The notes below the pieces were generated by a model, which worked only from the letters and a program-made list of their open reading frames with translations, did no database searches and was not told the origin of the DNA. Of a DNA stretch of 64,000 bases, positions 44,255 to 62,550 are shown piece after piece. The translations under genes were made by a program, and so were the position numbers. Source of the DNA: Leptogorgia sarmentosa (taxonomy: Eukaryota); assembly GCA_964658305.1 (NCBI GenBank), contig OZ210885.1, positions 1,612,001 to 1,676,000 on the forward strand, given 5' to 3'. Position 1 is the first letter of the stretch; each line of letters begins with the position of its first letter.

Positions 44255-44632
44255 CTCAAGACAACCGAGTCTTGTTTGGGAAAAGAATGCAATGATTTAC
44301 TTTGTGCATATCACACCATTCACCCGTTTCGCCAGAATCTATATACTATAATAACTAAAAGATTAGTGTCAGGCGGCACTTATTATACTAGGCAGGTGAC
44401 TAATCTCATCCAATCTCAACCACTCCATTCTGGCATGTTACCCGGCCCAGTCCTAAAATAGGTGTTCGTTAAAAAACATGGCGGCTGCGAAGGGGTGAGT
44501 TGTAGTCACTGGTTTAGTGTTGACATTATTAACGAATGAAACTGCATCTTATGCTTGTAAAGGTCGGTTACAATTTTTGAAATTAACTTAATGCTGATTT
44601 TGTACATAGCAAAAATATTATAAGGTTCATAG

Positions 44633-47600
44633 ATGAGCAGGCGGCGGAATGTGAAGCGACGTTTGCCGTCGATAGAAATTGTGTCGTTCGAGGGTTCTTC
44701 AAACATTACAAAACGGAGAGTTACGCTATCTACGCCTGATGTTATTCAGCCGGTTGAAGCGAGTGACTTTGTATCCGAGCATTCTGCAGAAGTACATCCA
44801 ATTCAACCGCTCATTATGGCAATAAATGATGGGAATGAGGGTGATGATGAAGACGATTCCGAAGATGACCAGCCTGCAGAAGTCAGTAATTATAAAAGAA
44901 AACAACAAAGCTCCGCTAAGGGCTGGGAGAACATTCGTGACTCCATGTTACAAGCCGTTATTGAATCTGAGTTGATTTCAGATGGTTGTCTTTGCGCTGA
45001 ATGCCATACAGGTACTGCAGTGTTTCGTTGTCGAAAATGTGGAACTGGTATTTTCTATTGTGAAACATGTGTGAGTAGTGTTCATAGCAAGAAGAATGTC
45101 TTTCATGAAGTTGAGGAGTGGAAGGCAAGTTTAATTTGCTTCTTTATAATGAAACAAGTCGGAGGTGTTCTGAAATGGCATGCAATGCATTGTGTGTATT
45201 GATCTAGCCATTCCAAGTGTCTTTGGGTGTTTAGGTGTCATAACACCATATTGTTTATTTGTGTAATTTTTGTATGTTTCGTGATACCTCCAGTAAAATT
45301 CTAAAAAGTTGCTATGGCAATCCTGGGTTAAGGGCTAAGGGTTCTGTTAAGGTATTCTGTAGTTCCTCCCACCTGCTAGCAGCTAGAACATAAAGTTAAT
45401 TTAATGGGTGCAATTACAGAACATTTGAAGCACATACCTTGTATGAATATTTATTTAATTGTGTACTTCAATAATTCTAACAGGATGGAATGTTTCAGCC
45501 AAGTGTGATCATTGGTAACTTGTTAAACCCTCGCCCTTCGCATGTTTGCCAAACATTTGAAACCAAATCAATTACTGTTATTGGAGAAAGTGGTGAGTAA
45601 ATAAATTATTTTCCATATTTTACTTACTGTACAGTGGAAAGTTTTTTTACTCTATTTAGCTACCAGTCTTACATGTAGTTGAAACTTGACAAACTAAGTC
45701 ATAATCATACCCTTAGTGTAAGAGCATTAGTATGAGCAGATTTAATCAACCTTTTTAACCATGTTGCTGTAATGCACAGTGCTGCATTGCTCTGTAATTG
45801 GTTAATGACTTCTTACATTTATAAAAATTATCAATTGTACTATTGTATAATTACCTGACTTGTGTTTTATTGATCAGTATGTTATCTGTTATTAGTATGG
45901 TACATATAACATATCACTAACAATAAAATAAGGGAGTTTGCTGTACACAGTTGCCACATTCTAGCAATTTTGTCAACATTTTTAGTGATTGATAAGCAAT
46001 CAATTTACAAATGACCTGCATCATTCTGCAATTCTACATCTTTTCAAGATTTGCAATGATAACTCAATAATCAGTTGCCGAATGATAAAACCCAAGGTTG
46101 CCTAAAATAAATAGCACTTTATAAATTATATTCATATGAAATCAAATTAATTTTGCAATTTTCTGGATTTTTGAAGAATTCTAACTAATAATTGTGCTAG
46201 TATGTTGGCTACACTGTGCTGATGAGCCCCAATTAGGGCGAAACAGCTTCAGGTTATTTCCAATAGTTACAGTTACAACTGAGTAATTTTATAAAATACT
46301 GATGATGACTGCAAGCTAGTTGAAACGTTGAAGAATCAAAATGAAAACCTTTTTCGGAGTGTCCATTGTTCTGTACAGTATTTTATTTCCAATATTTGGT
46401 TTATTTTCCAATTGTGGAAAAAACTACACACCACAAAAATTTGACAAAGTAATAGGTTTATATATACAAGTAATGTCATTGAAAGGAAGGCTTGCTGTCT
46501 TGTGGTAGGCTTGTTGCTATGTGTTATGGTTGGTGCTAACATTGAGATTGGGATAAGGAATCCGATAGAAGGTTGAGATCAGCTTCTAGACATTAGAACC
46601 TCATTTCAGAACTATGATACAGATCTAATTGGTGAGGTACTGAACAGACTTCTAGTTAAGTGTCTACAATAAATACTGTAATATCCAGTAAATATTTGTT
46701 TATTTTCATGCGGTATTGTGATTAGTATTTTTCCACGCAGGAATTGAACATCATCTTGATGTAGTGTCTTGCAAATGCGAACCATTATCTGTGACTTTAT
46801 CAAGATTACGACTTTGGCCCACAAGTTCTAAACAACCGTCATACGCACTGACTTTTGATCTGCTAGACTGGATGGAGGCAATGTTACTAGAATGTCAAGT
46901 CTCTTTAAATGACTTTTGCAAAGCGTTGAATTATAAACTGCCACCGTATGTTATTGTAAGTAAAAATTTAATGCATACATGCAGACAGAATGCCAAAATT
47001 ATTTTCTGAAACAGCATTTTCATTATTAAATTATTATTTATCTAGCGAAAAAACATTTACCCACGTATCATTGATTGCTTTGAAGAGTACAGGTGACCTC
47101 AATATCTAATTCTTTTATTAATTTAAGAGAAAATAATATAATCGATAGGGGCTAGCTTGCTAGCTTTTCTTGCCCGGTCATGCCGTTCCTGATGCGTATA
47201 GAGCTTAGCCTTAGGCAGACCATATGGACTATCATTTCAGTTGCATCGTTATATTACTGGCAAACGAACACCGTTATTAATATACACTTGCTGGTGCGAA
47301 CTCGCTCGCTTTTAATAATATTAATTGTCTTTATATAGTCTTAGTTTTCGAATGCAGTAAAAAAGAATCTCTAATATCTTCTCTAAAAAAAGAATATCTT
47401 TTTGAAAGCACTGCATGTGCAACGAAGGCACGAAGCATATATATACATAATCATCCCGGTTATCCCTACTCATCATCCTGGGCCTGGATATTATATTTGC
47501 ATAGGATTTCCATTGGAGTCGAATGGCAACTCTAGTTAACAACCGTCTGATTCCAATTGCGGATCTACATTATTTTGTGTAGATATTTCAAACATAGGCT

Positions 47601-61900: not shown

Positions 61901-62011
61901 AGTTTCTGCACAAGCAGTTGTAATTTGTGTCTGAAAATTTCTTCCAATACCAACCATACCATTGTTAAAATAAGATGAAAGAGTTGTCTTTTGATTTTCG
62001 GTAAACGACAT
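55902..62011 (-). CDS. Transposon cargo protein (~850 aa): homeodomain-like, HMG box, GTF2I repeat, Ser/Pro-rich linker, Tnp1/En-Spm-like region, PHD finger, PWWP3/MUM1-C-like; exons 62011-61877, 61596-61431, 60443-60253, 59789-59642, 59563-59483, 59142-58267, 58184-58170, 57958-57803, 57707-57350, 57229-57169, 56486-56349, 56241-56131, 56018-55902
   Basis: All 12 introns are GT-AG and phase-consistent; 2553 nt open. Motifs: FTENQKTTL..YF..ACAETGLTAKQVKNWI; KSGWNIFQREF..AAAKFKGLDSEAKHHY; IDGLPDVPFRKPSGYGVAQLKKIM; WVQCDSVQCKKWYHLQCVGL..WFCGC; DKVLLPEAF. Confidence 0.82.
56745..56908. mobile_element. hAT-type MITE nested in a cargo-gene intron
   Basis: CAGTGGCGAAGCCAGCC ... GGCTGGCTTCGCCACT..CCACTG; flanks TGTATACA / GGTATACA. 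Confidence 0.65.
60036..60230. mobile_element. hAT-type MITE nested in a cargo-gene intron
   Basis: CAGTGGTGTAACGC ... GCGTTGCGCCACTG; perfect 8-bp TSD ATCACTGA. Confidence 0.8.
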
Positions 62012-62550
62012 GTTATTACAGAAAAGTGTAAAGAAATTGTACAAATTGTAAAGTCTCGTACGTAGGATACAGACAGCGAGTGGACAGCGCGTTCAATTCA
62101 AGAGAACGAGCGAACAAAGGACGTACGAAAGAAAGAGAAAATTATTGGGGATTGGTGATACTCGAATAATAGGTGAATGGCATAAGCTTTGTTAACTTAT
62201 AGTCATATATTTATTTTAGCAGTTCATTTATATTCAGATTTATTTTATTCTGTAATAAGGTTTGTATTTATTCAAATGGTTTAGTATGTCCAGAAGTAAA
62301 AACTATAGTATTCATATAAACACGTGCGATTAAAATACAATGTTTACAATTGTACATCATACGTATTTCCTGGTCTGCACTTCCTGTGGCAATTGGCATG
62401 TTAGTGACGAGATTGGATGAGATTAGTCACCTGCCTAGTATAATAAGTGCCGCCTGACACTAATCTTTTAGTTATTATAGTATATAGATTCTGGCGAATC
62501 GCCTGCACCATTTACTTTTCACATTCTTCACGATTGACGTTGAACTGTAA

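Follow-up and report, generated by a model that had tools for sequence, protein, structure and literature searches.

A recently mobile two-gene KDZ transposon with a conserved multi-domain partner gene in the octocoral Leptogorgia sarmentosa

Introduction

Among transposons with a KDZ transposase, the fungal Kyakuja elements are among those closest to the locus treated here, a two-gene element within a 64,000-nucleotide stretch (the window, whose numbering is used throughout) of Leptogorgia sarmentosa contig OZ210885.1 (assembly GCA_964658305.1, positions 1,612,001 to 1,676,000). According to the available part of Kojima 2025 (PMC12730594), Kyakuja makes 7-bp target-site duplications (TSDs), has CA..TG ends and carries as second, chromatin-related gene a TET/JBP dioxygenase. 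Two Laccaria families, Kyakuja-1_LB and Kyakuja-2_LB, have no terminal inverted repeats (TIRs), two fungal families start with CACCCC, and sizes of 9-25 kb are given by 15 Kyakuja-1 supplement rows, those covered here of a total of 19. The same text assigns 8-bp TSDs to Zisupton and Dileera, and mentions Nuwa/Vandal. For Zisupton, Bohne et al. 2012 is followed as cited in the accessible parts of PMC12062965 and PMC9297572; a 31.7-kb Zisupton is known in Chlamydomonas. Cryptococcus KDZ1-3 and KDZx1 are described in the available portion of 10.1101/2024.08.15.608186 as TIR-bounded elements of 6-11 kb containing extra open reading frames (ORFs) without predicted domains, with a TSD of 8 bp for KDZ1. 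Outside the KDZ group, RAGL/ProtoRAG carries convergent RAG1L and RAG2L genes and a PHD finger that binds methylated lysine 4 of histone H3 (H3K4), as stated in the accessible text of PMC7204232.

An earlier note on this DNA, made from the letters alone, had proposed a two-component KDZ element whose second protein reads DNA and histones. The element is a real, recently mobile, cut-and-paste KDZ DNA transposon. Its second gene, hereafter the partner gene, is conserved and apparently undescribed, and homologs of it lie convergently inside the TIRs of distant KDZ families, which supports the two-component reading. The partner is likely an accessory protein that reads trimethylated H3K4 (H3K4me3), to judge from its PHD finger.

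Ends, target site and mobility

The two TIRs are identical at 94 of 97 positions (self-BLAST E=2e-40), the three mismatches lying within the outer 8 nt, and a 7-bp TSD, CACCATT, stands on each side of the element at the TIR-symmetric boundary, as the earlier note had read it. The ends are CA..TG. This anatomy points to cut-and-paste transposition with a 7-bp stagger. Copy number and flanks were derived from contigs of public sequencing runs. The right half of the element was present, partly or wholly, in 14 of 17 listed runs from four studies, and seven of the 14 were examined in detail. Runs X7, X8, X12 and X13 are called RNA-type solely by their intron-skipping contigs, since no listed run is recorded as RNA.

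An X8 contig links the two flanks directly across a single CACCATT, which is the empty site that the earlier note had suggested looking for. In X7, a right-type TIR end is joined to a different flank, and an element-free allele holds three extra letters within the target. These letters may be either an excision footprint or plain polymorphism, because the X7 haplotype differs at seven other places. A unitig of X3 spans exactly 44321-44417, and a single unbranched 5.8-kb X3 contig covers the transposase. DNA depth gives a rough hint only, at 260-425 for the element against 94-109 for the flank in X1 (about 2.5-4x), and at 23-30 against 2-9 in X3. Contigs of X1 and X3 enter the 43-bp satellite at 52140, so that the satellite, already noticed between the two genes, belongs to the element in other samples too. 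Loose ends at 62404 and 44495 (X12, X8) join TIR-side sequence to other DNA; they probably stem from non-autonomous derivatives, unless a first exon of another kind follows a short ATG at 44479.

The transposase gene

The first gene, of 16 exons and about 905 aa (Table 1), encodes a protein laid out as a B-box-like module, a CxC2 zinc cluster (E=6.5e-9), a KDZ core and a helical tail. Four exons match the KDZ domain (PF18758) at E 2e-10 to 0.05. Aligned over 950 columns with Dendronephthya gigantea LOC114542444, the protein shows 64% identity, and that homolog itself matches the KDZ domain at 7.6e-42. FDA, YDI and DGEQ motifs, identical in the D. gigantea homolog, may hold the catalytic D, D and E; DDE catalysis by the transposase is predicted. 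Splicing was seen as joints at 13 of 15 introns (X7/X8), and intron 1 is GC-AG. The spliced plus-strand transposase of the earlier note is thereby borne out in domains and introns, and it is not intact in this copy.

It lacks 14 nt with the exon-5 splice donor, letters that X3 DNA has and that an X8 joint uses. Read-through past the missing donor meets a stop in the window copy. The gap is either genuine or an artefact of assembly; unless it is the latter, the window copy is likely non-autonomous, because this donor is missing from its transposase, and would need transposase from a sister copy. Separately, an X7 contig joins the exon-5 donor (47658) to a plus-strand acceptor at 58182, antisense within partner-gene intron 6, with a stop two codons after the junction; a truncated product holding only the zinc modules, or a deleted copy, could account for it.

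The partner gene and its protein

The second gene is open and convergent to the transposase, as had been noticed, with 12 coding exons (845 aa) in place of the 13 counted before. Ten of its 11 introns were seen as joints in X7, X12 and X13, from three studies, which confirms the junctions apart from intron 1. The latter is not present among the joints listed, an unspliced X7 contig covers it, and the D. gigantea homolog reads straight across the exon 1-2 junction.

From the N-terminus, the protein consists of a homeodomain, an HMG-like domain, an alpha/beta domain, one GTF2I repeat, a linker, a beta-rich domain, a PHD finger and a weakly PWWP3-C-like end, so that the multi-domain DNA- and chromatin-binding character ascribed to it is borne out by domain matches. 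The N-terminal structure model was made from the first 295 residues of a homolog, with a predicted local distance difference test score (pLDDT) of 78. The homeodomain scores E 0.1-0.2 in Pfam and E=0.01 in a profile match to PDB entry 2da4, presumably HDX, and the homolog's model matches homeodomains at Z 9.4. The HMG-like domain is suggested by homolog P0004 (HMG_box, E=0.038) and by middling model scores (Z 6.2-6.7, residues 85-146). For the alpha/beta domain no PDB sequence match was found; ESM Atlas matches offer no more than a lead towards the TFII-I N-terminus or a MADS-like fold. The GTF2I repeat is firm by Pfam (4e-9; 2.8e-14 and 7e-12 in homologs), PDB sequence (1.2e-10) and fold (Z 12), and forms a single stretch in each of three partner proteins. 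The linker is 27-41% identical to homologs, against 34-76% for the domains.

The best solved matches of the PHD finger are the KDM5B and KDM5A PHDs and ING PHDs. Its Cys4-His-Cys3 ligands and two tryptophans align with 2kgg and 2ma5, the last ligand pair being CxC, and the tryptophans would form an H3K4me3 cage. The C-terminal model (pLDDT 58) resolves the PHD and the helical domain and leaves the beta-rich domain unfolded (pLDDT <50); fold searches with it yielded nothing beyond PHDs and unspecific helical folds, with Z 4.5 at best. The likeness of the end to PWWP3-C comes from homolog P0002 (PF20886, E=0.06).

Homologs were found at full length in D. gigantea (LOC114535158, 34%), on two contigs of Paramuricea clavata as near-identical CAB4003425 and CAB3983109 (the former 55% identical over partner residues 215-845), and for the PHD and tail in Owenia (CAH1787990, 26%). 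A 1.84-billion library gave 35 matches, two of them below 1e-30, mostly exon-sized fragments and several PHD-only. Short-pattern scans, weak for intron-rich genes, found no partner homolog in metagenome, prokaryote-genome or viral contigs, and no transposase in viral contigs. Residues 1-215 match an ESM Atlas cluster of 166 proteins, most of them cnidarian (score 0.94), with GTF2I in 52% and a homeodomain in 18%. Further Atlas leads are a mollusc cluster (0.82) that combines GTF2I with chromo and homeodomain, a chordate 'TFII-I-like' cluster over residues 84-212 (feature score 0.77, with a structure row of template-modelling (TM) score 0.33), and an alignment of residues 1-136 to 'highly divergent homeobox'.

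Second genes in related families

A scan for the transposase gave 19 loci, and one more brought them to 20. In eight of these the sequence continues for 6 kb or more past the transposase on its downstream side. Six of the eight roomy loci, representing all three families with room, hold a convergent second gene: L011, L012, L015 and L016 (one family, L012 and L016 sharing a flank), L019 (a second family) and L020. The catalytic-core exons of these relatives are 60-67% identical to the window transposase. The L011/L016 family has 135-bp TIRs starting with CACCCG, two different 7-bp TSDs, and six different left flanks in eight loci, and in L020, which measures 7.9 kb, the TIRs are 111 bp long, the ends are likewise CACCCG and the TSD is again 7 bp. 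In all four bounded elements (window, L011, L016 and L020) the TSD is 7 bp at the TIR-symmetric boundary, and an 8-bp reading of L020 requires an asymmetric end. TIR interiors differ between families. The record of L020 (OZ220027.1) is titled a bacterial metagenome-assembled genome, yet the locus has spliceosomal-type introns and is likely host DNA in the bin.

The second genes are homologous to the partner gene. Between the window and L016/L011, exon 1 scores 87 and exons 2-4 score 89, with 0 of 2000 shuffles in each case. In L020, which lay outside the profile, four exons matched in order (E 7e-11, 0.09, 1e-3 and 4e-3) with the same junction phases, and exon 1 again stood at 0 of 2000 shuffles. 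In L019 only linker, Ulp1-like domain and PHD lie within the locus, with the C-terminal layout of the related families. PHD is kept in all second genes found. In the L011, L019 and L020 families, a Ulp1-like protease before the PHD replaces the GTF2I repeat, beta-rich domain and tail; it has His/Asp/Cys motifs and scores 1.3e-7 in L011, less in L019 and L020. The relatives' copies carry frameshifts or stops. The family constant is homeodomain, HMG-like domain, alpha/beta domain and PHD, with a swapped middle module, and the full domain string cannot serve as hallmark of the family.

The cargo gene thus recurs within TIRs in two distant, fully bounded families of other assemblies, a recurrence that the earlier note had proposed checking. 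Its counter-case, a one-off capture, failed on the homologous convergent genes in these families and on the same C-terminal layout in L019. Capture of a host chromatin gene as passive cargo is largely refuted and very improbable, given the same position, orientation, exon skeleton and PHD across families of three assemblies and the domain-restricted conservation, even though homologs occur in named genomes without demonstrated transposase link and the Atlas cluster of 166 could include host genes.

Two side observations were made among these loci. Locus L013 holds members of two different KDZ families that face each other head-to-head inside 18 kb, and L019 contains at 15833-18869 (minus strand), inside the partner-gene region, about 1000 open codons of tandem-repeat, Ser/Thr/His-rich sequence.

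Proposed function of the partner

A model is proposed in which the partner acts as a helper that steers insertions to H3K4-methylated active promoters. The fixed front (homeodomain, HMG-like and alpha/beta domains) would grip and bend DNA, the partner would bind element DNA or the transposase, and its PHD would read H3K4-methylated nucleosomes, so that insertions are directed toward active promoters. Besides this front, the partner would have a flexible linker, the constant PHD and a middle that is a swappable slot, occupied by GTF2I repeat and beta-rich domain (with the helical tail) in octocorals, and by the Ulp1-like protease in the families of L011, L019 and L020. The only insertion that could be placed, that of the window copy, has the ATG of a transcribed host gene 172 nt downstream. 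Targeting is favoured over anti-silencing, a structural cofactor role and passive cargo, with confidence a little better than even.

Several points weigh against this reading. The promoter-proximal insertion is a single case. Exons 2 and 4 taken singly are weak against shuffles (44 and 46 of 2000), and the Pfam scores of HMG, homeodomain and PWWP3-C lie below curated cut-offs. No partner was found at L010 and L018 (one truncated insertion) or at L007 (3.9 kb of room), and the other loci without one are too short to contain it. The element shows no subterminal array of repeated binding sites, with no 8-mer beyond two or three AT-rich copies. The full-length D. gigantea homolog lies on a 783-kb contig, whereas the closest transposase found there is on another, of 104 kb, so that some of the named homologs (D. 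gigantea, the two Paramuricea copies) may be free-standing host genes.

The best-surviving alternative, distinctly less probable and still to be taken seriously, casts the partner as a regulator of the element, anti-silencing or transcriptional, which would bind the element's own DNA and maintain its activity, like VANC or the Kyakuja TET, without influencing where insertions go. The presence of three domains of DNA-binding type and of a transcription-factor repeat would suit such a regulator, and the Ulp1-like module of the L011, L019 and L020 relatives, with its His/Asp/Cys motifs, would then strip SUMO from silencing factors. The TET gene of fungal Kyakuja is read as anti-silencing in the available part of PMC12730594. 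Against this, the octocoral partner has no recognisable enzyme, the ends lack a repeated binding-site array, and the constant C-terminal part is the PHD and not the protease.

Improbable is an obligatory transpososome cofactor, comparable to Harbinger Myb/SANT or TnpA, that would attach to the TIRs, bend the DNA and be required for excision, while taking no part in chromatin targeting. Other DDE recombinases are assisted by bending of the HMG type, and the front domains are fixed across families whose core exon is 60-67% identical to that of this transposase, which would fit that role; yet the transposase has zinc modules of its own (B-box-like, CxC2), the TIR interiors vary between families, and the constant PHD would be left unexplained.

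Insertion site, surroundings and repeats

The host gene next to the right end is P450-like by weak matches (five of eight PDB matches are cytochromes P450, E 0.35-1.1), and its exon at 62685-62840 has no Pfam match. A 17-nt AGGTCA/TCAAGGT-rich motif, which we assume to be nuclear-receptor-like, occurs at 43963 and 62553 (plus strand), in both flanks, with a similar one at about 44230, and nowhere else in the window at up to two mismatches; the insertion puts 18 kb between the upstream copy and the P450-like gene. The host part of the window further contains exons with fibrinogen domains, which are duplicated, and an ORF with a DnaJ domain that lies in a single exon (2749-3619, 12658-13955, 21205-27319, 30557-31918).

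Within the element, the satellite flips orientation at 55012, forming a long palindrome that is either real or assembly-made. Likeness of its unit to the TIR is marginal (36 of 1000 shuffles), and no relationship is claimed. Small high-copy repeats resembling miniature inverted-repeat transposable elements lie at 56745-56895, 50175-50267 and 46205-46375, within introns of both genes, and the one at 50175-50267 matches 42719-42880 outside the element.

Table 1. Coordinates of the element, its genes and the adjoining host exon in the window
Feature	Position	Strand	Remarks
Left TSD copy, CACCATT	44314-44320	.	single copy at X8 empty site
KDZ transposon, whole element	44321-62505		two convergent genes and satellite inside TIRs
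Left TIR, 97 bp	44321-44417	+	begins CACCCG like two related families; X3 unitig
KDZ transposase gene	44633-51701	+	16 exons, about 905 aa
Transposase exons 1-8	44633-45124, 45484-45592, 46741-46955, 47046-47092, 47583-47658, 48080-48247, 48409-48545, 49068-49179	+	
Transposase exons 9-16	49269-49352, 49471-49651, 49862-49951, 50073-50144, 50432-50525, 50676-50744, 50828-51015, 51124-51701	+	
Site of missing splice donor	47657-47658	+	14 nt with exon-5 splice donor missing
Satellite, 43 bp	52171-55439	.	66 direct copies 52171-55014, then 10 inverted copies 55012-55439
Partner gene	55902-62011	-	12 coding exons, 845 aa
Partner exons 1-6	62011-61877, 61596-61431, 60443-60253, 59789-59642, 59563-59483, 59142-58267	-	
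Partner exons 7-12	57958-57803, 57707-57350, 57229-57169, 56486-56349, 56241-56131, 56018-55902	-	
Homeodomain	61877-62011	-	helices 1-2 and start of 3; closest PDB 2da4
HMG-box-like domain	60253-61596	-	exons 2-3
Alpha/beta domain	59642-60330	-	end of exon 3 and exon 4; long helix, two strands, helix; pLDDT 60-70
GTF2I (TFII-I) repeat	58970-59563	-	single copy, from exon 5 into the beginning of exon 6
Linker	58267-58970	-	Ser/Pro/Thr-rich, ending in a basic run like a nuclear localisation signal
Beta-rich domain	57580-57958	-	conserved, no assigned family; 68% / 36% identity to homologs
PHD finger	57370-57550	-	nearest KDM5A/KDM5B C-terminal PHD
Helical C-terminal domain	55902-57229	-	weakly PWWP3A/B-C-like; pLDDT 73-88
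Right TIR	62409-62505	-	same right-type end with other flank in X7
Right TSD copy	62506-62512	.	
First coding exon of transcribed host gene	62685-62840	+	ATG 172 nt from insertion; spliced 62840>63554 in X7

Comparison with known systems

No description of this second gene was found in the literature searched, in agreement with the earlier note's remark on the domain combination; Repbase, Iyer et al. 2014 and Bohne et al. 2012 lay outside that search, and Repbase and Bohne et al. 2012 may already contain such elements. In the accessible parts of PMC12062965, PMC9297572 and PMC10027918 the partner is not described. Neither the size of the element nor the presence of a second gene is novel in itself, in view of the extra ORFs of Cryptococcus KDZ and the 31.7-kb Chlamydomonas Zisupton, and the word giant in the earlier note was an overstatement beside the 15 fungal Kyakuja-1 consensus rows covered, 18 kb being an ordinary length for the Kyakuja type. 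Ends, TSD and two-gene anatomy are now defined for an animal Kyakuja-like lineage, only fungal ones having been found described. With a conserved accessory gene whose middle module is swapped between families, the role of KDZ second genes becomes testable in a family that has moved recently and is expressed.

Within the KDZ transposons, to which it belongs, the element is Kyakuja-like: it shares with Kyakuja the KDZ transposase, the 7-bp TSD, CA..TG ends, the size range and a second chromatin-related gene. The described Kyakuja are fungal and carry TET/JBP, whereas TIRs of 97-135 bp and a homeodomain-HMG-GTF2I-PHD gene are found here. It is not filed as Kyakuja because TIRs are present. Like Zisupton, it has an animal multi-exon KDZ transposase with TIRs; unlike Zisupton, with its 8-bp TSD and CxC7, it has a 7-bp TSD and CxC2. 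Accessory domains of Zisupton such as Ulp1 lie within the single transposase protein, whereas here they lie in a separate convergent gene. Cryptococcus KDZ are likewise TIR-bounded with extra ORFs, which are domainless, and KDZ1 makes an 8-bp TSD.

TnpA of En/Spm, the Myb/SANT protein of Harbinger and VANC of VANDAL are also second, non-catalytic DNA-binding proteins of DDE transposons. No homology to them was found here. The TnpA analogy of the earlier note is loose, because no subterminal binding-site array was found; an En/Spm-type (Transposase_23/DUF8039-type) fold match is weak, being one Atlas row with TM 0.19/0.24. By analogy of architecture, RAGL with its convergent RAG1L/RAG2L and PHD is the closer counterpart: in both, TIRs enclose a convergent gene pair of which the non-catalytic member has a PHD. 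RAGL differs in its unrelated transposase, 5-bp TSD and RAG2L kelch propeller; the predicted partner folds are homeodomain, HMG, GTF2I, PHD and helical, with no kelch.

The TFII-I family (GTF2I, GTF2IRD1/2) shares the I-repeat by sequence and fold. Its members have several tandem repeats and an N-terminal dimerisation domain, towards which residues 84-212 of the partner give an Atlas lead. The partner has one repeat, an extra homeodomain, HMG-like domain and PHD, and a place within a mobile element. A GTF2I repeat, known from the Williams-syndrome factors, thus occurs inside an intact mobile gene beside two domains resembling vertebrate host proteins. The partner is a possible source of vertebrate TFII-I-type factors, and a transposon origin of TFII-I becomes testable by phylogeny. 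In its widest form, which is tentative and on balance doubtful, the comparison would run as follows: two-gene KDZ transposons would form an old lineage in animals, so far undescribed, that uses a modular partner, with a homeodomain-HMG-dimer core, a swappable middle and an H3K4me3-reading PHD, as a promoter-targeting device that is RAG2-like and arose independently. Tamed pieces of it would have given rise to the vertebrate TFII-I/GTF2IRD1 family (repeat and N-terminal domain) and to the homeodomain of HDX type, and perhaps also to the C-terminal domain of PWWP3A/B.

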